Part shown: positions 38,629 through 57,273 of the stretch, piece by piece
Numbering within the stretch: the first letter of the stretch is position 1
Layout of the letters: each line of letters begins with the position of its first letter
Assembly: GCF_964204865.1 (NCBI RefSeq)
Contig: NC_135252.1
Span: 21,638,001 to 21,702,000 of the forward strand
Direction: 5' to 3'
Length of the DNA: 64,000 nt
Source of the DNA: Styela clava
Lineage: Eukaryota
The notes under the pieces: generated by a model
The model's input: the letters and a program-made list of their open reading frames with translations, nothing else
Told to the model about the DNA's origin: nothing
Database searches by the model: none
Made by a program: the position numbers and the translations under genes

Positions 38629-41600
38629 CTATAGATGGATAAGAAATAAATGCACATTTTAATGGAAGATTCTAAAAGTATTGCCCGGATCTTTTTTGTT
38701 TATTTTATGTGCTTTCACTTTTTGGTAATTGGAATCCTACTTTTTGTACGTTTCAAATTTATCCCAATTCACAGGTAAATCTGCATTTGATTTGTTTGTT
38801 TGGTATTGTTATGTTGTTTTGTGTTATGCCAGAGCGACCAAAATGAAATTGATTGATTTGTTAAGATTTTCATATTTTCCTTAATGGAAATAAAAGGCAA
38901 CTTTCCTGATTAGACTGTTCTAAATTATTCCCTCGATTAAGAACTTGGAATGTTGACAATAACTCATATCGATTCGTTTTGGACATCCCTGACTGAAACA
39001 GCATCAACGATATATGGAAAACACTCGATAACATGGCATGAAAAATTACACCCTTACTCTGTCACAGGATTCTTCAAATTGTTTGACCAATAGATGTCGC
39101 TCAAGAGCAAGCAATCTCTCGTCAGCAGCCTGGACAAATCTCTGGATTGCAGAACAAACTGATTCATAACTGGAGTGAATCCGATCAGAATAAGATCTAA
39201 ATAAAGAAAAGTAATCATTGAGCAAGTATTTAAAATTAAATTTAACTGCTTGTGTCGAATAAGTTCAAACTAATTGCAGTTCTATCAATAAAATGGAACC
39301 TAAGTCAAGCATGGAAAAAATAAGGAGGTTAATTAACAAAACCGGTCAGGGCTAATAACCAAGTAAGGGGCTTGGGTGTAGGTGAGTGAATACGTACCAC
39401 TTCTTTTGGCAAAACCTTCCATTTTTGTTCCGTACGTTTTAAACCTTATCCAAGGTTTTGTTTGCTTTCCTGATTTCATAATCAGTTTTTATTTATTTGT
39501 TTTTATCAATCATTTAATCGGCTTTCATGCTGATTATGAAGTCGAAATAAACTATTTTATATACTTGAGCAATATTATCAGTTTTTCTTTCCCAAAAGTT
39601 AATTACAAAAATCTAATGATAATCATCCTGTGCCTCTGGCACAAATAACTGGTTAACTATTTTATACTCAACATGAACCGAAAACAAGACGAGGGGCCTC
39701 AATTCGCCATATGATCATGTCATGTCGGCTCACAAGTTTTCCTATCTCCCAAAATAAACGAAATATAAAACTCTACTCTCCTAATGCTGATAAATTCGGA
39801 AGCAAACACGTAGACAAAGGTTGTGAGATTGGACATCTGTCTTGTGTTCTTAGGCCTGTTATTCCACACAGGTGAAATTCTGTGGGTCGGTCGAGATATA
39901 GATATGATCTTCAGCAATTTAAACTGCTGTACTGCTATTGCTATTTTCATTATGACTCCCTCACCCAACAGATTCATGCATAAGGAAATAAAAAACTATT
40001 AGTCAGACAGTTGGACCATGGCTCATGAATTTTCCCTCCCATGGGCAAATATGAAATTACTATCCGATACAGAAGTGGTACGGCTTGTGACCCCTTCAGA
40101 AAGCTTTTAGCACTCATGGCCACCTGTCTATTATACCACTGGTATTTCATAGTGTTTTTTAGATTAATAGACGCCAAATCCCATTGTGTTCAAAAACTTG
40201 TAACAAAGAGAAAACCCCTGTGAGGAGGTAGTGATGAACTAGGAAGAACGGGAGGTTTACTTGTGAAAGAATAAGTAAAATTAGTTGTATGCTTAGCATT
40301 GTGCTTCCCCGCTCCAACTGCTCTGTGGCCTCGATAATGGGACACGGGCCCCCTCTGCGCCATACAAATAAAAAGATGAAATTTAAAGAACAATTTCATA
40401 GAAAGAACACAACCTCCAATAAAGTTGGGATGATAAGAAATAAGTGTGCTGGTCAATCAACCACACAATATGTACATTCACACGAAGCAGAGCAGCTTTC
40501 AATTATTCAAAAAAAATGGAATTCAACTCTGTCCACTTACTGGTTTTCTTGCTTAACACTGCCGTTCAAATCTGTAATGAATCGATGACCCGAATCATGA
40601 AGGTCACGAACTCTTGGGTCGTCAAGCAAACTGGTCATGGTTGACCGATGTCGGTTCAACATATCTGAGGTATCGTTCAATGTAGTAGGCAATGTCGCTG
40701 TTGTCATTGACACTGTGTTGCTTGCAAAGTTGTGTTCCAGACGTTCACAAAGTAGTACATATGACTCGATGTCCTGATTAAAAAAAATATATTCAATCAC
40801 GAGCAATTAAGGTTTATTTCTCACGAAGAGAGGGAAGCTGATGAGAAGGATTGGTTACATGTAGAGTATAAAAATAGTTAGAATAGTTTCATATTTATCC
40901 AGAGAGAAGGAATTGAGTAAAATGGATTAAAATTCTGGCAAATCGCGACCTCTTGTCGGCTAACAGACTACTCGACTACACGGACAACTTACCAGATACA
41001 ACTCGACTACCGAAAGGACTGGTGTGGTAATTGTCTTGTTGCATATTCTACGGCGACATTATTAAGATTATAGGGGTTCAATTTTGTTCCTTTCAGGGCT
41101 ACAATGACTCTGAACTATGTGGGGTAGATATGAGAATAGTTAACGAAATTTCCATATTTATATCCGGAAAAGAAAAGATGATAGAAGCATTAGAAGGGCC
41201 TTAAAGCATATGGCAAACCACAGCCTTTCGACCGGATACTGGACTATGTGGGGTGAAGAAATAGTTATAAGGTGATTTAGTATATCTGTGAGACTGTGAA
41301 TTCTCAACCTTATATTCGACCATGTTGGGTTTGTGATTGCCTAACAAAATATTTGTTTCAGATGCATAGACTTGGTGATGGGGTAAGCTCTAAAAGACTC
41401 AGTTTTGTGTTACGAAAGACATCATATGACATTTATCTCGGCAAAGGTATTAATTGCTGTAGTCAAAGCTCGGCTATTTAAAGCTAATGCATGAATAAAT
41501 AAATCAGACGTAAACACTCATTGGCACCAAAGTATTGACAACAAGATCAATAGGAAGCAATCAGGAAACCATCAAAGATATTGCTGATTAAAATGAGGCT

Positions 41601-44600
41601 ATGATCAAATACTCAAGGGAAATAAATGTGTGATGGAGAATATAGGTGCAATGACCTAATGGTTGAAATGTCAGACATTGGAGTCTGAGGATAAAGAGGA
41701 TGATGGAGTTCAACCTTTCTATAAACCAGTCGTACTCAGGTGTAACAAATGCCAAAAATAGCGGCTACTTTGTTGTAGTCTTATTTGGAGTAAGGGTGTT
41801 TTAATGCCCCATGAATGCTCTTATTTTGTGGGTTATTTTGAAATATTTACAGCATTTTATTGAAAAGTACAGAACATGCCTGATCTGACATTTATTTTAA
41901 TTTTAATGACTAATCACCACAGCCTAAGCTCAAATGTAGCCGTAGTATCTTAAAATAAAATAGAACGGATTCTGGTAGAACGGTAAGAACGCAAGGGTGA
42001 CCCAAAATGAGGAACCCGAACGATATGTACTGGATCAGACATGGGCATAGTTCGGCCCGCTAGATAATTCAATTTGGTCTGCCTGATGCTGCCACAACCA
42101 AACTGAAACCAAATTTTGATGTTTTAGTTAAAAATAGCTCAAAAACTTTGTTGAGATTGCGGTTAAATTTAGTTTGGGCACGAGGTTTATTGTTTTCCAC
42201 TGTTGCTTTTGTAACACTGTAAACATTGTTCATAAAATGCAACTCTTTACGTCATACTTAGATGGCCCGCCAAGAGTGGGTGGGCAAAATATTTGGGCCC
42301 TGATCCAAAAACCATACTCACCCCTGTTCTAGATAGACAATTTTTTTTTTTGGGGGGGGGGGGGTCACCCTATATCAGAATATCATATCAAACAATAACT
42401 TTCCGTACCAGCCTCTGTTGTACCCATAGTTTGTGATCATACTCCTTCAATCCACCGAAGGCTAGCGGTAAATTCTCAACATCGATGAAGTCAAGGAGTT
42501 CTCCATAGCTGTGGATGACATTATGCTGCATAGATAAACAAATGTTAACCCAGTAATCAGAGGTGCAATGAAAAGCATGTTCCCAATATGCCGACTGTTG
42601 TGTCATAGGTCAAAGAGTGGTAACAAAAGGTAAAAGTATATAACTGTATGCAACGGTAGTTGTAGCTCCTTGCATATCAATGTCTGCTTATACAGAACTT
42701 TGCTTGTAGTGAAAGGCGTCAGTCATATAGGAGTTTCATATAAAAAAAAAGTACACATTCTCCATGTTACCAGGAAGAGCATGAAAATAATAGTTACAGC
42801 AAAGAACAAAATACTAAATAATAACTAAATAAAATTGTGTTTTATTAACAAGATAAACCAATGTCAAAAGTCCGTAATATTTCAGTAATATGAGAAAATT
42901 ATGCAACCGTGTTCTTAATGTTCCTTCCGCCATCCCATGTACTGGAAAGCCATTCAATGCACATTGTTTTGTATGACTGTATTTTTATATGAAAATATGG
43001 ACATATTCTCCATATCACCAACGAAATGAAACAAGTCACAGCAAAGACCAAAGTATTATCAATAAATACCTAAATTGTGATCGATTCATATTAAATCACA
43101 AAACCACATTATAAATCACAAAATTCTTACCTCAGCTTTAATAGCATCAAACTCCGAATGTAAAGATTTGTCTTCAGCGAGAAATATTACCTTTGATATG
43201 ATGCCGGGTCGATTCCCCTGTAATATAAATTATGGGTTTAGAATGACATCAAATTATATGAAACATGGAGCTTAATTCGGTAACCACATATTCTGGGTCA
43301 GACTAAGGTTAAGCCAATTTTGATATTATATGAGTGTTTTTCCAGCATTGCATTTTCTAAACATTTTTGGGAAAACACACATGGTTAATAATGCAGTCAT
43401 AATTGATACAATGCTTGTACATATACGGATTTAAGAATTTGTTCTAGGTTAGGTATTAAAGTTTAGGTAATTTATTAGGTGTAAATATTAATTGAGGTTT
43501 TCTTGTAAAAAGCACCGGTGGGAAATGTCAGATACCTAAAGTATGAATTTTAATAATAAAGTTAAGCGTAAAAAATTCTTCCAATAATAATGAATTTAGA
43601 TAGACAAATGACATCAAATTATATGAAAAGTAGAGCTTAATTTGGTAACCACATATTCTGGGTCAGTTTAGGTTAAGCCAACTTTAATATTGTATTGCGG
43701 ATAGTATTGTGCGAGTATGTTTCGAACATTTTTATCCTAAAGTTGAGAGTATTTTTGTGCAAACGTTTTGCATGAATCCTGATTATCATATAAGCATAGT
43801 GCTTATAGGCTAATTAGATTTAAGGACATTCGTGGTTCATTCATACACCAATGAGTTGAAAATGACATATACTTTTAAAAGTATTAATAATTTATTATTA
43901 AATTTAGTCAAAAAAAAAAATAGAAATAATCAATAGGCTATAGTTTGAAGTTTGAAAACAACTTTGGAGATTTGTTCAAATTCTGGCAGATAAGAAAATC
44001 GATTAAAAATAAAGTAACTATTCTACAATGTCAATTAGTAAATTGTTCAATTCATCCTGGTTTTATATTGAAGTTAGTATATCAAGAAACAAATGAAAAA
44101 ATTCATAGCAAGTGTATATTTTGAACCAAACAGACAAGTTTTTAGGTATTATGTAACTCAACTATATCATATTACATAAAATTAGAATCAAATTATTGAC
44201 AATAATACGTCTAGGGTTATCTGTAAATCATAATTACGAAGATTAGAAATTGTTGGTCTAGTCAAAACACACATTTATCAGTTGTCTTACCAGTTGCCAT
44301 CACCCTGAAGAGAAATGGTAATACTAAAGTCACTTTTTATAAAAAGTAATAATTTAAACTCACTCAGACAGACGGACATAATATTATGAGACTTAGGGAA
44401 GGTTACGGCATATTTGAATTAGAAAGTTGCAAAATTCCTGGCGACTGGCGTGGATGTTACCATATTCCTCCACTCATGATTTGCAATAGGTAGTAGTAGA
44501 GTACATATAAAAGACGGAAGGGAGTACACCAGAGATGTCAAAAATTAAAGAAATTTTCGAATTTATTCAAAATTAACAATATTTGATATTGCATTGTTCG

Positions 44601-47600
44601 ATTCTAAGAATAATCCAGACTAGTTTAATTTGGAAGAATCATTTTGAGCAATTGAGGTTTCATAAAAAATAAAGAACGAATCACATTTTTGTTAATCTTA
44701 ACTTCCCGAAAATGGAAAGGCCAAGTCTAATTTAAATTTGTGGATTTTAAGTCAAAGTACAAAGACTCACTGTAAAAAATGACAGCATTTTAATTATTTA
44801 TATAAGACCAAAATCTAAGCTGAATAAAAAAGTAATTCAATATCTATTCATAAATAATGTAGCAATGAATCTTTCAAATCTTGACTTAGGTGACCAAGTG
44901 ACATACCTAATACCATGAGCTATCAAATTTCATTAGTTAGAAGTAAAAAGCCCTATGAAATATATTCACAGCATAAATAAGAGAAATCTTCATGTATGCG
45001 AGAACATGAGAAAAAAACAGGCATATTGCTGACAAAGAGGCGCTACAGAAGTTTGTGTACCAATATGAAGGTAACAAATTTTTTCGCCTACTTCACATCA
45101 ATTTGTGCAAAGGGACTGGAACTTTTGGGCAAGTTTATATTCACTTGGCTAACACAGACAGTCTCCGAACTAGTAATGAAATAAAACAAGGAAAATCGAA
45201 ATGAAATTATGGTCTAACTGTAACCCTAACCTGGTACACACACTACGGGAGTACCGACAAAGATTTATATTGTTGTGTCTTACTTCTGAAATATACTGCA
45301 AAAGATGAAGGGAGCCCAAAGCCGGTTCCCAAGGATTTTGAATACCTGACATAATAAACTGAAAGTCTGCTATGAAAGTCAAATTTAGTTTTGTTATGTC
45401 CTACCTATATGATCTCTCACTTCCTGCCTCATATAACGATAACAAACTTTTCTTCTTTCAACAAATACCTTGCTCTCCTTTTTTCGACATATGACAATGA
45501 ACCTTCCACGTTTGTAAATACATCCTGGTTATAACGATTAAAAAAAGCTACACCTTCCAATAATCAGACGCATGAAACTTGAGTTTCTAACATCTATATA
45601 ATCTGTTTTTTCTTCTCTGGTAAATGACATAAGTCTTGGTAGGAAAATTTTCTTCATTCGGAATTATCATAATAAGTATTCAGGCGAAGGATAGAGCCAG
45701 GGATGGCCAAAACCGTTCAGAATACACTGTTCAGAATAAATTCTAACAAAATATTGTCGAATATGGTATATCGAATACATTCTAAATTGGGGGAAAATTG
45801 CATATATCACTATATCTCCATGTTGATCACATCTGAAACAGCATAAATATATTGTTTATTGTTTTCTTATGTTGTTTGCTATCAGTTGAAATTTCTTACT
45901 GTTTGATCTGCTTGTCTGACAGCTAACAATCTCTAATTTTTAAATAAAAATATTCTAAATTATTTCTAAATTAAAAAATGTTTTACATTGAATATAATGA
46001 AATTTAAATGTATTCGAATATTTGATTCACTTTGAACATCCTTGGATAGAGCATCAGTTGTCACCAAAGCGCAGAAAACTGACAATAAAACCGTTGATTA
46101 CTCCTGTGCTTAAAACTTCTACTTTCTTCCAAAATATCATAACACAATCATAGCACAAGATAAACTACTTCATGATAGCAATACAAATGTTTATCCCAGG
46201 ACATTGCCAAACTTTGCTTTGCAAAATATTTTTTCTAACTGAAATCATGCATCATTGATTATTGTGTTATTAACTTTGACACGATGCAAACTTGGAGAGG
46301 CCAGATCTAAAAACAATTTAGGCATTCCTTCAAAAGAAAAGATGGTTTAACTTTGGTAATTCTTGTCTGGGTTATCAGTGCACTTCTTTATCAATCCCAG
46401 AAGAAGTTGCATTTTCCTACAAATTCTCTCAAAAATTAAAAAAAAATTATAGAATAAAATTTTAACAATAATACCTGAAACAAAGAAACAGAATCCATAG
46501 TGGTTTCCATGTTTTCCTCATGTCGAATACTAATAACAAGAGTGACATATGAAGCCGATGATCTGAATAAAGTACATAAATTGAATAATTTTGTATAATT
46601 TCAATAACTTGGTATCAAGGATGGCCAAGACGGAATATATTGCTATTTTTGCTATTTCGGATACTTTCTGGAAAGTTAGCATATTTTCAAAGTAAAAAAT
46701 TCATGTATAATTGCGGTATTTCATTTTAAAGGAAAATTTTAATTTTGTGATAGAAATTTTTTTTATAATAAGCATGGATGACCATAACCAATTGCCGGAA
46801 GGCAGGATATTTAATATAGATAGATAATCATAACCAAGGAAACGGAAATCAGCCAATCAGAGGAGATGAATATCTTGAAAAAATTTAAATTTACCCCAAT
46901 TATATTTAATAAAGTACCGTAAAGCGGGGTGACTATGACCCATTTTTGGTCTTTCAGTCAAAATATCTCGAATATTAAAAATCTATGAATTGCTATTCCG
47001 GGTCCAAACTATGCATTTTAGAGGGGGTATACGTCGTGCATAATCATTGAACCAAAATATTTGTTTTTTCTATATTATTTTTTTTAATTTACGGTGGGCC
47101 AAAGTCACCAGCAATTTCGGTACCACTTTGGCCCAGTGCCTATTTCTCCCCATAAATTAAGCTGTACCCATACTGAGACAAAGAAAACATTTATTACAGT
47201 GGGCTTTGGCCCACAGAGACTTTTTAAAAAAACAGAAACCCCAAAAAAATTAGAACACTCAACGAAATCGGCCATTTTATAATGGCACTGCAAAAATCAA
47301 AATTAAACATGTCTGTATTCATTCATAGCAGTTGATATCATGGCAAAAAGGTCAGTTCAGTTCAATTCAGACACTTTATAGATGCCTCGCGCATTTATGA
47401 GATCTGGGGGACTGATACAACGTTTTATGCTGCTCCAGTCGTAAAAAATCTGATCTTTCCGAAATGGCCATCTCCAGTTACATCCAGACTTCTCCATGAC
47501 ACTCACCTCGCACCCGTCAGTTGTGCGGGTTTTGACAATTCCAGGGTATAATTCACCCTCATACGAAATTATAACATAATCACCAATGTTGCATTCTTCA

Positions 47601-50600
47601 AATGGCAAGTGATGAGCAGTTGAAACTACAGAGTGAGAGTTGGATGATTCAGGAGTAGAGGCTTCATCGCATTCATCGTCTGAGGAAACAATTTCAACCG
47701 TTGAATCTGAATCTTCAATATTTTGATTTGCTTGAGCTTTTTTTGAAACCGTTTTTTCAAGTCTTGCCACATCTTCCTCACATGCGCTTTTCCCAGGTTC
47801 TACCTGAACCTTCTTTCTTGTTTTAGTTTCCTTTGCCACAGAAGATCTTAAATCTGAAATTTTCTCAAGAAATTTTTCACTGATAACATCAGAATCATCA
47901 TGACTCGTAGTTCTTGGTAATCTACTGAGAACTTCTTCTTTATTGAGCGGAACAAGTCCTGCTTTTTTAAATCCTGCAACTAGGTTGTTTGCTCCCCTGA
48001 CATCAAGAGCAAAGCAGAGTTTGTTCAAAAGTGCTGGAAACTCATCTTTTCTTAGCGTTGCGGATGTCTGCCTTCTTTCTTTACTTTTCACAGAATTCAA
48101 TATCGATCTCCAAGCGACTTTCATTGGCCTGAAATAGGCAATATCCAGGGGTTGGGTGAGGTGCGTCGAATTAGGCGGTAGACATATGAAAGCTATATTG
48201 TGATCAAGACATGATTTCAGAACATCTGGACTGATATGGGAGGATAAATTATCCCCAATGAGAACTTTTTTCCCATTTTGACGCTTCAGCCTAGGCAGCA
48301 CCATTCGATTAAACCAATCTTGAAAACTAAATCCATCAAACCAGCCTGATCTTGATCTGTTGTATAGTGTCCCTGGTGGTCCTCCTTCAACCCAAGTGCT
48401 CCACAGATTCTCGGCTTTGTACACTACATACGGTGGCATCACTGCTCCTGCTGCATTCCCACAGAACATCAAACTTATTGCAGATTTTGTCGAATTCAGG
48501 ATTCTTTCTGGGTATTTGCAGCCGCGCTTGCATATTATCTTCTTTTGCCCTAAAAATAAATGCTTTGATCACAATACAGTAATATTTATTATCCATACTA
48601 GACTGCAAGCCAAAGTGAAATTTTACATAACACCATAAATAGTTTAAAATTTGATTTGACGCAGTAAATATTTTAAAAAAGGGGATTAACAAAGAACGCT
48701 TGAAAAATTGAATACCGTAGTACTGTATATACTTAAAAGCAAAGTCACTCATACCTGGGTCATCAGTTAAGTTTGTTTCATCATAATTCCAAATATTTTC
48801 CGGGGGCACATCATCCAACTCTTCTTCGATGTTTTCAAAATATTTTTCAATAGTCTCACTCGATACCCCTGCCCTTTTCTTTTTTATATTCGTTGCGAAT
48901 CGCACCGTTAGTTCTGAGTGCCTTTTTAAGAATGCTTTCACCCATTCAACTCCAGGATAATTGCTGTGAAATTTACTGACAGTCACTCCTTTTGCATCAA
49001 GATAAGCTTTAACTATGCTTCTCAAATCTTCCTGTGCTATCGGAAAACCAAAACTGCTTACGGCTATGCAGTGCTCCACTAGAATTTTCTCAGTTTCTGC
49101 AGATAAAACTGTTTGCCCACCAAATTTTTTCATGTGCCTCAGTTTCAACTTATTCTTCAAAGTACTCCTAGGTATATTGAACTGTGCTGCAACGTTTCTT
49201 TGCGATTCTCCCCTTTTAATTGCTTCCAGAGCTCGCTGAAGTTTTTTCTCACTATAATCATGGTATCTTCTACTGCCCAAAACACGACTGAATTTTCTCA
49301 CCATGATTTGAAATAAACTGTTTACATTTATAGATTAACTGGATGACTAGAATGAGAAAATAAATTCGTTTTATTTCTGAAAAATAAAACAAAAAAGTAG
49401 GTTTGTATAGGGTAATAAGGTGGGCCAAAGTCAGTACCATATTACATGGAATTTTGCATTGTGGGCAAAAAACCTCCCTCATACGCCCCCAACTAGTTTA
49501 AACTTGTTCCAAACACCATAAAAACCTTCACAGAGAATATCTCTTCCAACCTGTAAAGAATAAGGACAATTGAATGTTTCTTTTTTGGACTTCTCAATAA
49601 AAGTACTGAGTTGCGATTTTTTTTTCAATTTTTTTATTTCTGACCCTCCAAATGAAAAAGTTTTTTTTCCCAAATATTTTTCATAAAGTGACAAGATTTT
49701 TTGTTGTATAATTATTGCTGCTGTTATTAACTACAGTATCAAAACAAAATAAAATGGGAAATATCAAATAAAAGTAGATTTGGGTGGGTTTTAAACAAAT
49801 TCTCAAAATGGGGCCAAAGTCAACCCGTGAGGTCAAAGTCACCCCGTTTTACGGTACTCAGACCAGCAAAAATGGGAATCTATCAAAGTACATAAATATA
49901 TATTTTCAATTTATCCTGGGAGAGAGGAAAGCTGACAACACGATTGAATCATATGGTGAACTGTGGTCCTCTTCTAGGTACCAGTCCATGTCGGGTATTA
50001 TAGGATGATTTAGCCAGTTATTTGTTTCAGATGCATGGTCTTGATGGTGGAGGAAGCAGCAAATGACCAGTAGGTACAGTACGCGAAACACCCTACAATG
50101 GCGAGGAATCCAGCAATCCTCTTGTACATAATTATCTCTTCGGAGGATTTGAACTAGCGAACCTGCTCAGGGTTATCAGAAGCGCAATGGCAATTATATT
50201 CTTAATAATGCTTAGAACAGTCCATTACCATTTCTTGCTAAAAACTTCAAAGTATGAATAAAACTAATTTGAAATCATAACTTACACAAAATACAACATC
50301 AATCGTGCAATATCAAGTTTTCCATGTTGAAATTCATTTATGATGTCACAGTGTAGAAAAATCACGGGTCGACAATTCTTGTCATAACAGCCTATAGAAA
50401 GAATAAAACAGAGAAAGTAAGAATGAAACATAAAAGGTGGTTGTTCACTCTAATGCCTTTCAAGTAGTTAAAAATGTGTGCATAGATTAGTATTATGGCA
50501 ATAATAAATACCACAACTAAGAATATAATAGGGTGGTGACCGTACATTTGAATCCACGTACATTTGAACCCATGTGTATATCCGCGTGTTCAATCTATAT

Positions 50601-53389
50601 GCGGGTGCTAAAATTCAAGGGTTAGTGTTAGTATGGGTTCAAATATCCGTGAAAATTTTTTTCCATAGGTGCAATTGTCGTGGGTTCAAATGTGCGTGGG
50701 TTTAAATGTAATGAAATCAATAAGGTAAATACAAAGCCAAAGCAAAACTCCTTCTCAAGAGTGATGAATTCCTCACCGATTGGGAGATATTGTACTAAAT
50801 TAATGTAACTGAAATAATGATGATCAGAACTAACAATTAAAATTGATACAGAAAATTTTTTATTTTTTACATTTCAAAAGGGGGGGATCTGATCCTCCCT
50901 CAACCTCCCTCTCCAACACTGGGTCACCTACCTGGATAGGTAACAGCTCCTGAATATAAAACATCTTGACGAACTTCCTTTGCACATCTAGGTCGGCTTA
51001 ATTTGACAAATCCATCTGAAAAATAATGAAACTGGTGATAAGGATATAAAACGTTGCCACCGATGAATATTTGAGAAATTTGAAAACTGGGTACTCCTGA
51101 TTCCTGAAGTATGCGTACCAAGATCGCAGACACCGGAACATACTATGTTTACCAGGTTAGGGTTATGCCATAATTTTATTCCAATTTTCCCTATTTTAGT
51201 TTTATTAAGAGTTCGGGAACTAGCCAAGTGACTCCCGTAATATTTGTACCTGAAATTATAGCCTAACCCTAACCTGGTACACATACTACGTTCCGGTGTT
51301 GGCGATCGTGGTATGTATACTTCAGGAGCACCGAGGATTGTACAAGGATCTTTTATGATAAAAAAAGTTAAATATTTACTACCGCCAAGCAAACTGCATT
51401 TGAATACTTCAAAAATGGTGTAAGATTCTTGGAGCATTTCTCCAAGGGTGAATGAATGAGTCATAAAAAATTTGAAGATTATTGGGAAGAGCATAATTGA
51501 TACAGTGGATTTGACTATGGTGAAAGTAATTTTTCTTTTGAGAAAACTCTCTGGAAAAAAAGAAAAACAAAAAATACCACTTCTAGTGGTTCTAACTAAG
51601 ATTTGTACACATGATAGAAATCCTCATTTCAAATTTATCAAGGATAATGAATTAGAATGTAATAGTGCTATCATCACTTAGCAAAAATTTTAAACCCAAC
51701 CTGATCTGCCAGTAAGATTAGATCACACGTTCACACTAATTCTATATTTACTATTTCAATTAAAATAAAAAAAAGTAAATATTAGAACGGTCAATAATCA
51801 ACATAGCCACTCCCTTGTGGGCTGTGGCCCATCTGATTACATTTTAAAATCAAATTATAAAATAGTTATCAAATGACAACTTAATAATGTCACTTTTTTA
51901 GTCAAGATCAAATACCGTAATACTCAAAAATCGTTTCATATTAAATTTTTTTTATAAATTTCAATAAGTGATATATTATAAAAATCTCACACTGAAACTT
52001 CGAATTTTCCTCAAAATTAGGGATAATAAAGAATATAGAAAAATAGAGCAAGATTTTCATGATTTTCTACAAAAAAAACTTTCACAGGAGACCACTTTGT
52101 GTAAAATAAACACTCTGTCTTGTGTAGAGCAAAAATGGTATTCAAAAGACAAATAGAATGATCATGCTTGGCTTTATATAAATACACATTAATTCAAATT
52201 GAAATATATTTACCTTTGTCTTCTTCCTCATTGTCAAGTTCCTTGTTCACAGGAAGGTCAAGTGTCAAACTTGAAAGTTCTTTGCAATATTCTGGGGTTT
52301 GGCAAGAATTTGACTTTGAGTCGGATAATTTAAAATCGGATTGTTCAGTGTTAAATTGTTCATTCACATTGCATGATAAGTCCTCTTTAGAATAGGCAGG
52401 CGATAATGATTCTGTATAAACAGAAGGAGAATGGCTTGGAAAGAAAATTTCATTCTCTAAAACGCTGTGTAAAATACTGTTTACTTCCTGGCTTGTGGGT
52501 GAAAGGTCATTGTCGTTATTATGATTTCGATATTGTGTCGTAATTTCAGGAAAATCTAATTTTCTTTCAAAAGGAATTACTCTACCGCTATCCTGTGGCG
52601 TTTCTGACTCGTCATTGTTAAAATTCGTTGGTTGTTTTGCCGAGGGCAATATTTGTTTATTTATGGCTTCGCCAATTGTGGGCGATTCACTGTCATCGAG
52701 AGTTTTCACAGTTAAACTGAAAATTTGATTTTCTTTGTCGTCTTTTATGTAATCTTCGGAAAAAACAGTTTCTAAATCATTTGAAATTTGTTCATTCTCA
52801 GCAAAATTGGGTGAATCAAAGTTTGATGTATTAAAGTCACTTTTTTGATCGTTTTTAGTCAGATTAACTGGCGGACTTTCTTGGTTATTTACTCCTTGTA
52901 GAAGTTCTTCCAAAGAAATACTCAAACTTCTGTCAAGATCTTCAATTCTTTTCGTTTTCTTTGCTGTTTTCTTCGATTTTTTTGACGATTTTTTAATTTC
53001 ATTTTGTAAAATGTCACTTGGCTCTACTATTTCTAAAGTAGGTTCAAAATTTTCGTTTTGCATAGGATCTGATGGCTTATTTTCTACTAGTAATCCATTT
53101 TCCGTAAGTAAATCCGTTTCATAGCCAACTTTGTTGGCATAAGATGATTGTTCGACAAGATAAGAAGCATCCACACTTGAAGTGTCTGATTTATTGGCAT
53201 ACTCCATTGCATTGGAGAGTATTGGTACTTGAGGCGGTAATTGACCTTCACGAAAAGTCAATTCGAGTTCGACGGGTAATTTGAGTTCATGGGTTATAAT
53301 AAATGACGTATTATCGTACAACCGTGATCCATCCCATGAGAGCTTTGTCGCGGTTGATTGATTTGAGATTATGATGCCATAATATAAGC
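38506..53389 (-). CDS. PLEKHG4: Puratrophin-1/PLEKHG4/ARHGEF40-like RhoGEF gene, partial multi-exon model: exons 53389-52214, 51015-50932, 50391-50286, 45400-45284, 43217-43131, 42525-42409, 40773-40541, 39196-39058, 38628-38506
   Basis: Manual splicing gives GT-AG junctions with matching phases, except 50286->45400. The peptide ...VLYSGAVTYPGCYDKNCRPVIFL...IARLMLYF...LTFIADF...GIISKVIFL...LLDFIDVENLPLAFGGLKEYDHKLWVQQRLDIE...HRSTMTSLLDDPRVRDLHDSG follows the SEC14-like plus spectrin region of PLEKHG4/4B as I recall it. Exact orthology not tested. Confidence 0.8.
39058..39196 (-). CDS. Exon: SYSDRIHSSYESVCSAIQRFVQAADERLLALERHLLVKQFEESCDR, spectrin-like helix
   Basis: tctttatttag acceptor, GTAAGG donor, 139 nt, phase 2-0. 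Confidence 0.85.
40541..40773 (-). CDS. Exon: DIESYVLLCERLEHNF...HRSTMTSLLDDPRVRDLHDSGHRF..., spectrin-like repeat
   Basis: tttaatcag acceptor, GTAAGT donor, 233 nt, phase 0-2. Confidence 0.85.
42036..42326. mobile_element. Decayed hAT (Charlie-like) MITE
   Basis: cagacatgggca ... tactcacccctg ends, GGCCCGC motifs, degenerate TSD tactggat/ttctagat. Confidence 0.6.
42409..42525 (-). CDS. Exon: HNVIHSYGELLDFIDVENLPLAFGGLKEYDHKLWVQQRL (C-terminal SEC14/CRAL-TRIO motif)
   Basis: L..FID...LP..FGG...YDH..W motif; cag acceptor and GTACG donor; 117 nt. Confidence 0.9.
43131..43217 (-). CDS. Exon: GNRPGIISKVIFLAEDKSLHSEFDAIKAE
   Basis: attacag acceptor, GAG|GTAAG donor, 87 nt, phase 0-0. Confidence 0.8.
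45039..45255 (+). mobile_element. MITE family B copy
   Basis: Perfect 8-bp TSD gacaaaga (45031-38, 45256-63). Confidence 0.92.
45284..45400 (-). CDS. Exon: DITKLNLTFIADFQFIMSGIQNPWEPALGSLHLLQYISE
   Basis: LTFIADF matches the conserved hydrophobic-D strand; GAA|GTAAGA donor is in phase with the next exon. 5' boundary uncertain (weak acceptor, phase conflict). Confidence 0.6.
45698..46044. mobile_element. Short hAT MITE related to 61274-63624
   Basis: cagggatggccaaa ... tttgaacatccttg; perfect 8-bp TSD gatagagc. Related remnants at ~32594-33024, ~38969-38991 and ~46616. Confidence 0.88.
46917..49854 (-). mobile_element. Full-length pogo-superfamily (Tc1/mariner-IS630 group) DNA transposon, 2938 bp, DD35D type
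   Basis: 24-bp TIRs ccgtaaagcggggtgactatgacc / ggtcaaagtcaccccgttttacgg (2 mismatches), TA on both sides (46915-16, 49855-56), transposase gene inside. Confidence 0.95.
47357..49304 (-). CDS. Pogo-like transposase, 580 aa, two exons (49304-48755, 48549-47357): HTH_psq + CENP-B/Tc5 HTH + DDE_1 domain + C-terminal beta-barrel-like module
   Basis: The two ORFs join through a 205-nt intron (CCAG|GTATGA ... tttttag|GG) into ...NYDETNLTDDPGQKKIICKRG...; catalytic Asp in YDET, GDN and QPLD, with 35 residues between the last two; no in-frame stops. Confidence 0.93.
49895..50230 (-). mobile_element. tRNA-derived SINE, longest copy in the window
   Basis: Pol III B-box GTTCAAATCC (50154-50145); 3' half recurs at ~15900-16060 (+), ~39620-39780 (+) and several times in 40810-41420 (-). 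Confidence 0.65.
50286..50391 (-). CDS. Exon: (G)CYDKNCRPVIFLHCDIINEFQHGKLDIARLMLYF(V)
   Basis: ttctttctatag acceptor, GTAAGT donor, 106 nt, phase 1-2; matches the GxxDxxGRP...L..LL.YF pattern of SEC14-like domains. Too short for the ORF track. Confidence 0.8.
50535..50718. mobile_element. Second copy of the 271-473 MITE
   Basis: Colinear similarity; decayed TSD aatagggt/aataaggt. Confidence 0.85.
50932..51015 (-). CDS. Exon: (D)GFVKLSRPRCAKEVRQDVLYSGAVTYP(G), start of SEC14-like domain
   Basis: ttttttcag-type acceptor, CCAG|GTAGG donor, 84 nt, phase 1-1. Confidence 0.8.
51090..51332 (-). mobile_element. MITE family A, diverged copy
   Basis: Same TIR architecture, with some CG>TG/CA changes. 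Confidence 0.85.
52214..53389 (-). CDS. Large 1176-nt exon (phase 1-1), acidic/Ser-rich low-complexity region of the PLEKHG4-like gene
   Basis: The 375-aa ORF extends upstream to an acceptor aatag|GC at 53389; donor GACAAAG|GTAAAT at 52214; splices in frame to the 51015 exon. Confidence 0.8.
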
Positions 53390-54323: not shown

Positions 54324-54478
54324 GGTACTCAGTGTGTGTACCAGGTTAGGATAAAGCCTGTTTTAGCCAAATGAATATACTCCCTCTTCATAGGTTTCAG
54401 TCCCCTTACACAACCTGATGTACAGTAGGCAAACAAAATTAGTTACCTCCATATTGGTACACATACTTCTGGAGCGCC
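54324..54478 (-). mobile_element. MITE family B copy, internally deleted
   Basis: Perfect 8-bp TSD ctgacatt (54316-23, 54479-86). Confidence 0.9.
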
Positions 54479-57079: not shown

Positions 57080-57273
57080 GGCGCTCTAGAATTGTGTGTA
57101 CCAATATGGAGGTAATTAATTTTGTTTGCCTACTTTACATCAAGTTGTGTAAAGGAACTGAAACCTATGGGCAGGGGGTATTCAATTGGCTAACACGGAA
57201 TAGAACTGAAGTAAGGAAATTTGTATAAAATTATGGCCTAACCCTGACCTGGTACACACATTATGGGAGTACC
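57080..57273 (+). mobile_element. MITE family B copy
   Basis: Colinear with family B, small deletions. Confidence 0.85.

Follow-up and report, generated by a model that had tools for sequence, protein, structure and literature searches.

A predicted SH3-like barrel at the C-terminus of a tunicate pogo transposase, shared with some Sola2 elements and possibly a chromatin tether

The 64,000-nucleotide stretch of Styela clava DNA analysed here (the window) holds a pogo transposon whose transposase continues, beyond its catalytic domain, into a small module that had been proposed to read chromatin. This raises the question of what such a module is, and of whether it could influence the choice of an insertion site. 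Elements of the Tc1/mariner type are generally regarded as inserting almost at random into TA, and chromatin choice by cut-and-paste transposons is little understood.

A complete element in a host-gene intron

The minus-strand region 46917-49854 is a complete pogo element of 2,938 bp, with inverted arms at 46913-46940 and 49831-49858. It is organized as follows.

46563..50285, minus strand: host-gene intron holding the element, in the same orientation as the transposase; joint 46562->50286 (CT..AC)
46915..46916: left TA target-site duplication (TA on both sides in 11/11 sites)
46917..46940, plus strand: terminal inverted repeat (TIR) at the gene's 3' end, about 24 bp, 2 mismatches against the other arm
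46917..49854, minus strand: whole pogo element; the TIR core recurs as short subterminal repeats near 47101, 49427 and 49816
47357..47593, minus strand: C-terminal SH3/Tudor-like barrel, residues 503-580 plus stop
47563-47561 (Y513), 47548-47546 (Y518), 47476-47474 (W542) and 47470-47468 (W544), minus strand: barrel aromatics
47594..47722, minus strand: acidic and Ser-rich linker, residues ~460-502, preceded by a basic stretch; probably disordered, from its composition
47357..48549, minus strand: transposase exon 2, DDE_1 with D283 (48253) and D319 (48145), then linker and barrel
48550..48754, minus strand: predicted transposase intron, 205 nt, GT..AG
48755..49304, minus strand: transposase exon 1, HTH_psq, weak Tc5-type HTH and first catalytic D175 (48782)
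49831..49854, plus strand: TIR at the gene's 5' end
49855..49856: right TA target-site duplication

Joined, the two exons encode a 580-aa transposase that contains a DDE_1 catalytic domain (PF03184, E 6e-20) and a DDD triad made of D175, D283 and D319, with 35 residues between the last two (DD35D). Together with the TIRs and the TA duplication, this bears out the sequence-only reading, which had called the transposase intact. The module that it had quoted corresponds to the last 78 codons of the minus-strand ORF (C503-N580, 47593-47360, stop 47357), after the acidic linker. An identical splice junction is found in P0001, a tunicate database protein named 'jerky protein homolog-like' that differs by 1 residue. 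The transposase splice was not seen in 7 contig sets from 6 different RNA-like runs, where the element is unspliced; contigs drop rare forms, and the RNA status of the 6 runs is a guess, none being recorded as RNA.

The DDE_1 domain with its DDD triad, the TIRs and the TA duplication are features of the pogo superfamily, and the combination of DD35D and HTH_psq, with or without HTH_Tnp_Tc5, is that of Fot/Fot-like elements. By the domain and motif features listed in Gao et al. 2020 (PMC7386202), the element is Fot-like, being similar in its DD35D, its HTH_psq/Tc5-type HTH, its TA duplication, its short TIR and its length, which is in range. In the available part of this hmmscan-based survey, DNA-binding and DDE domains are given and no C-terminal barrel, whereas the present element has one.

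The minus-strand joint 46562->50286 skips the element in 6/6 RNA-like runs, which indicates a spliced host transcript. The copy is thus intronic, and it lies in a block of low CpG o/e (0.51-0.66 over most of 40-60 kb, versus ~1.0-1.1 over 1-38 kb of the window), as expected from the earlier statement that it sits within the CpG-poor body of a host gene. This gene (window 40541-53354, minus strand) has at least 7 exons, including a large acidic exon (52214-53207), and one exon may resemble the CRAL-TRIO region found in SESTD1/Trio-like proteins. Host introns also contain short inverted-repeat elements of very high copy number, at ~45136-45255, 50543-50710, 51102-51327, 54440-54478 and 57117-57225.

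Across the genome, 22 TIR-pattern matches correspond to 11 insertion sites, all TA-flanked: 6 identical 2,938-bp solo copies (that of the window included), 1 copy of 2,932 bp, 3 internally deleted copies and 1 head-to-tail hexamer. In contigs of other samples, element flanks were found that match none of the 11 sites (compared by eye), as well as 1 further deletion form. Because of these identical copies, new flanks and extra deletion form, the family is considered recently active. The hexamer (G000:C6:21823672-21841294, L037-L039) consists of 6 identical copies with a single TA duplication around the whole array, and each of its internal junctions lacks the TA and is minus one terminal base. 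Such junctions look as if an element had been excised as a circle and multiplied afterwards; the copy number of the array could be an assembly artefact. In another database model, P0002, the transposase part ends mid-barrel and is fused to a HERC3-like E3 ligase. P0002 is probably a chimeric gene model, the alternative being a real splice from an intronic copy; it did not map to any of the 20 flank loci.

Fold and conservation of the barrel

An AlphaFold2 model built on 110 sequences (pLDDT 92.7) predicts a small antiparallel barrel with a short helical turn at its end. Among the 50 chains listed by VIA-align (Z 6.4-8.1), the best are the Tudor of PHF19 (Z 8.1, rmsd 2.0, 53 aligned) and that of MTF2 (Z 8.0, rmsd 1.2, 48 aligned), a Z near 8 being a level that VIA-align calls common. 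Chromatin-associated barrels account for most of these 50 rows. Non-reader barrels are tied with PHF19 and MTF2 (UBE2O, Z 8.0; Hpy99I, 7.4; NusG KOW, 7.3), and chromo-barrel, Agenet, BAH, PWWP and KOW rows stand within ~1 Z unit of the top. Because Tudor, BAH, PWWP and KOW matches are tied, the model supports an SH3-like barrel fold well and does not support Tudor identity over other SH3-like barrels. Of the Tudor/SH3-like module initially proposed, the SH3/Tudor-like fold is supported, and a Tudor domain proper, with tied Z values and no profile match, is one candidate among several SH3-like barrels. Foldseek on the predicted structure of residues ~505-580, suggested as a check, gave a similarly divided answer: the SMN, PHF1 and PHF19 Tudors lead, but there is no match at E<=0.001. 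A viral fold search returned one unnamed match (E 6e-4). PWWP domains have their PWWP motif at strand 2 and end in a bundle of helices. The barrel agrees with them in neither respect: its WxWP motif follows strand 3, and helices of at least 4 residues are absent from the elements listed by DSSP.

An aromatic cage had also been anticipated. In PHF1, the cage is formed by W41, Y47, F65 and F71, and MTF2, with three aromatics, is a weak binder, according to the available part of PMC7492083. Positions 1 and 2 of the PHF1 cage correspond to Y513 and Y518, each 98% aromatic in the 110 sequences, and positions 3 and 4 to the small V534 and to I551 (aliphatic) or F552, Y513 and I551/F552 being placed from end-to-end aligned ranges without internal gaps. 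The strand register that puts Y518 and V534 at positions 2 and 3 is in part our assumption. Half of the expected cage would be in place, and the remaining two positions are apparently not aromatic. W542 and W544, both 100% aromatic, belong to an inserted hairpin beside the putative cage site; they might supply the missing walls of a new cage, or else occupy its pocket. Compared with the Polycomb-like Tudors PHF1, MTF2 and PHF19 (6wau, 5xfr, 2m0o; PMC7492083, in part), the barrel is alike in its predicted five strands and in the first two cage positions, but it differs by the WxWP hairpin inserted between strands 3 and 4 and by a C-terminal P..RG.Y arm, and it has no detectable sequence similarity to them.

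Out of 1.84 billion representatives searched, 946 clusters match the barrel at E<=0.001, of which 141 pass E<=1e-10, and it lies within 25 residues of the C-terminus in 145 of the 150 matches listed. Among 110 barrels, W544 is invariant, and Y518, P519, G520, M535, W542, P545, D549, Y553, P565 and R571 (91%) are conserved at >=90% by the aligner's own counting, both Y and F occurring at position 518. Because of these numerous clusters and strongly conserved positions, the barrel can be considered as beyond chance. No Pfam family matches the 78-residue query, so that no earlier Pfam annotation speaks against the first reading, and no Tudor family occurs among the 25 listed of the 45 Pfam families for the 110 members. 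A HAS-barrel Pfam match in 11/110 members (best E 1.6e-4) was taken as fold-level noise. PDB sequence searches with the barrel gave no significant match, and a word-based search with the barrel alone gave 9 candidates, the sole true match being the protein itself. Named carriers include beetles (28 matches, 7,991 candidates scored). Atlas clusters with the barrel, mostly from arthropods and molluscs, share no single Pfam family, and rows with DUF7869 scored <0.8. One protein, P0027, has two barrels in tandem.

No description of the barrel was found in the full-text literature searched; subscription papers, Repbase entries or supplements may hold one. In the available parts of the pogo surveys PMC7325037 and PMC7386202, 'Tudor' occurs solely as an author name, and those of PMC5751038, bioRxiv 2021.09.26.461848 and PMC8149907 contain nothing on the barrel. 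Judged from its sequences, the barrel is a large unannotated domain family even if it is no reader.

The net charge of the barrel is 0 (median 0 of 110), which makes it unlike a typical basic DNA binder. Retroviral integrases have an SH3-like C-terminal domain, and resemble the present case in that a DDE enzyme ends in a small beta-barrel. Unlike that domain, the present barrel is neutral in charge, longer and optional. The integrase C-terminal domain is absent among the fold matches listed by Foldseek and VIA-align, which need not mean that the two are dissimilar.

Carriers of the barrel in two transposon superfamilies

The upstream parts of the 150 matches listed were sorted with seed profiles hand-chosen from the matches themselves: 28 and 21 belong to two pogo subgroups, 13 are Sola2-like, 10 fall in none and 78 are too short. 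The fusion first noted as a single case is real, but the barrel proves to be a widespread module common to two transposon superfamilies.

In S. clava, the second carrier (L034) is a 3.85-kb element present in 3 near-identical copies, with 4-bp duplications at 2/3 copies and a 687-aa protein. Compared by eye, this protein has the Sola2 motifs DFAENY, SDG..SQ.KN and FFATSHGKG. It shares alignment motifs with the Sola2 elements of Bao and Jurka 2013 (PMC3627910) and is also alike in its duplications, but, unlike the second carrier, the Sola2 of that article have no barrel described in the part available. Between the pogo and the Sola2 proteins, the barrel alone is shared (43% identity across 76 aa, E 4e-17, all further HSPs being non-significant), so that a self-contained, host-aimed function would fit. 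When 77 barrels were placed in a tree (80 columns; the bootstrap did not converge), 16/18 Sola2 barrels form one supported group; of the remaining 2, one (P0010) is nested in a supported pogo group and one is unplaced. This suggests one main exchange between pogo and Sola2, in either direction, and perhaps a second with P0010, although this outlier could be a gene-model chimera. Sola2 probably acquired the barrel at least once. In this genome, the barrel was found in 3/20 Sola2-related loci.

The C-terminal slot of other pogo loci was also considered, using 40 of 126 DDE_1 matches, hand-picked in favour of long frames and multi-copy families. Among these 40 loci, 4 families or singletons end in a Pfam PHD finger above cut-off and 5 in a divergent barrel, mostly with F-x-F-P instead of W-x-W-P. 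The divergent barrel is homologous to the focal one (hhalign 97%, E 4e-11), and its own model is barrel-like (pLDDT 82.9, best Z 7.2). Two pogo families have neither barrel nor PHD, and the rest of the 40 are truncated or without a clear end. Curators are probably familiar with PHD fingers at the C-terminus of pogo-like proteins.

Insertion sites and the candidate role of the barrel

If the barrel steers insertion, the sites should not be random. CpG o/e was measured in the flanks of the 11 sites and, as a background, in 60 windows of 10 kb taken at random from 15 large contigs (330.6 of 376.8 Mb, with lengths as lower bounds). With 2.5 kb per side, the 11 sites, a small number of surviving insertions, range from 0.39 to 1.13 with a median of 0.72, versus a random median of 1.00 (one-sided Mann-Whitney p 0.0018). 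With 1 and 5 kb per side, the same test gave p 0.0019 and 0.0011, and masking of repeats gave p 0.0035. The sites also differ from 34 multi-copy pogo control loci with defined ends (p 0.002) and from the 16 young ones (p 0.010), the 34 control loci themselves matching the random background (p 0.50). A ratio below 0.75 was found at 6/11 sites versus 11/60 windows, 5/11 sites being above; these counts are secondary because the cut was set after some flanks had been seen. When the background is weighted by TA or GTAC-like sites, its CpG-poor share is 17-18% (7/11 versus 0.184, binomial p 0.0012). New flanks from RNA-like runs were left out of the test, since such runs favour genes. The element's own low CpG (0.62) was discarded as evidence, PHD families in CpG-rich flanks having likewise 0.61-0.69. 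The CpG-poor bias of the focal pogo family is real, and the insertions are not distributed at random.

What the CpG-poor sites are is less uniform. Pfam searches on 76 of 584 flank ORFs placed host-type coding sequence within 6 kb at 6/10 other sites; of the remaining 4/10, 1 is inside a Gypsy-type pol, 1 is near a Baculo_FP-type ORF and 2 are without match. One of the 11 sites sits between two BTB-Kelch ORFs. Because of this site and of that in the Gypsy-type pol, CpG-poor cannot be equated with gene body. At the Gypsy-type locus (L042/L043, G000:C4 ~20.10 Mb), the copy interrupts a CpG-poor Gypsy-type gag-pol region. Long BTB/BTB-Kelch ORFs lie within 6 kb of 3/11 sites (L053, L054/L055, L058) versus 0/60 random windows (Fisher test, post hoc, p 0.003). 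In Ciona, it is gene bodies that carry methylation, not transposons as such (PMC3827831, in part), whereas in cnidarians transposons are targeted by methylation (PMC8857917, in part).

It should be noted that pogo loci without a C-terminal module (6 loci, two families) have a median of 0.76, close enough to the focal sites to give p 0.29. Divergent-barrel pogo loci (16, median 1.06) are not CpG-poor, and the 11 PHD-bearing loci have a median of 0.90. For Sola2-related elements, 17/20 loci, of which 3 are known with a barrel, gave 0.86 versus 0.95 (p 0.013), 2 loci without an end and 1 duplicate being left out; the flanks of the 3 young Sola2 copies have 0.58, 0.84 and 1.34. Barrel and insertion bias are thus correlated, but the low CpG around pogo elements that lack a barrel is a counter-example. 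Of the steering that had been proposed, the bias stands, and the barrel is a candidate cause of it.

The distribution may thus have another cause, whatever the role of the barrel: a general bias for transcribed DNA, a target preference of the AGTA/TACT type, survival filtering or chance in 11 sites. This possibility, to which we give somewhat less than an even chance, agrees with the behaviour of the barrel-less and divergent-barrel families and with sites of mixed kind. However, TA/GTAC-like weighting leaves the CpG-poor share low, most other pogo loci match the background, and selection would be expected to eliminate copies within genes, not to favour them.

In a second explanation, the barrel would bind a non-histone host protein, such as an elongation, repair or replication factor, for activity, stability or gap repair, any gene-body bias being a by-product. 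The canonical cage is incomplete, yet aromatics and prolines are strongly conserved; the best structural matches include the Spt5/NusG KOW and UBE2O barrels, and host-factor tethering is established for integrases (PMC8149907, in part). The alternative occupant of the slot is, however, a PHD finger, and most structural neighbours listed are chromatin readers, so that such a partner appears unlikely. Slightly less likely again is a role without targeting, in which the barrel would help build the transpososome or contact DNA, as the integrase domain does: the KOW, PWWP-ssDNA and nuclease barrels tied in Z and the conserved R571 would agree with it, and the W542-x-W544-P hairpin may just pack against the barrel, but the barrel occurs on two unrelated cores, comes after an acidic linker, lacks net charge and, in related pogo families, is either missing or replaced by a PHD finger.

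We therefore return to the barrel as a swappable, built-in chromatin tether that would help steer insertions, a proposal which we hold with even odds. The HTH would bind the TIRs and the DDD core would cut and insert at TA, while the barrel, on its flexible linker, would bind some feature of the nucleosome, such as a histone tail with or without modification or a protein of chromatin, and so make insertion nearby more probable. In this genome, its target would be methylated, gene-rich chromatin. The slot is modular, accepting a divergent barrel or a PHD finger in related pogo transposases. Chromovirus integrases, which carry chromodomains, provide an example of reader-guided integration. The PWWP of LEDGF/p75 tethers HIV-1 integrase to H3K36me3 (PMC8149907, in part), and the predicted function would likewise couple a DDE enzyme to a chromatin mark. 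Unlike both systems, the present module is inside a cut-and-paste transposase and is common to two superfamilies.

H3K36me3 is the leading candidate as a ligand, though a minority bet. It is equally doubtful, in its full form, that the barrel represents an unnamed, transposon-borne family of methyl-lysine readers with a cage formed by Y513, Y518 and the W-x-W hairpin, reading H3K36me3-like gene-body chromatin and swapped between pogo and Sola2, where barrel subtypes and PHD fingers would be interchangeable address labels. Since the element is young and intact, its 78-residue module is detachable, and its natural relatives have a divergent barrel, a PHD finger or no module at all in that slot, the question of targeting can be tested by deletion and swap. 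If true, the proposal would mean a new reader family and the exchange of modules between transposon superfamilies, and it would offer a compact natural targeting part for gene-delivery vectors.
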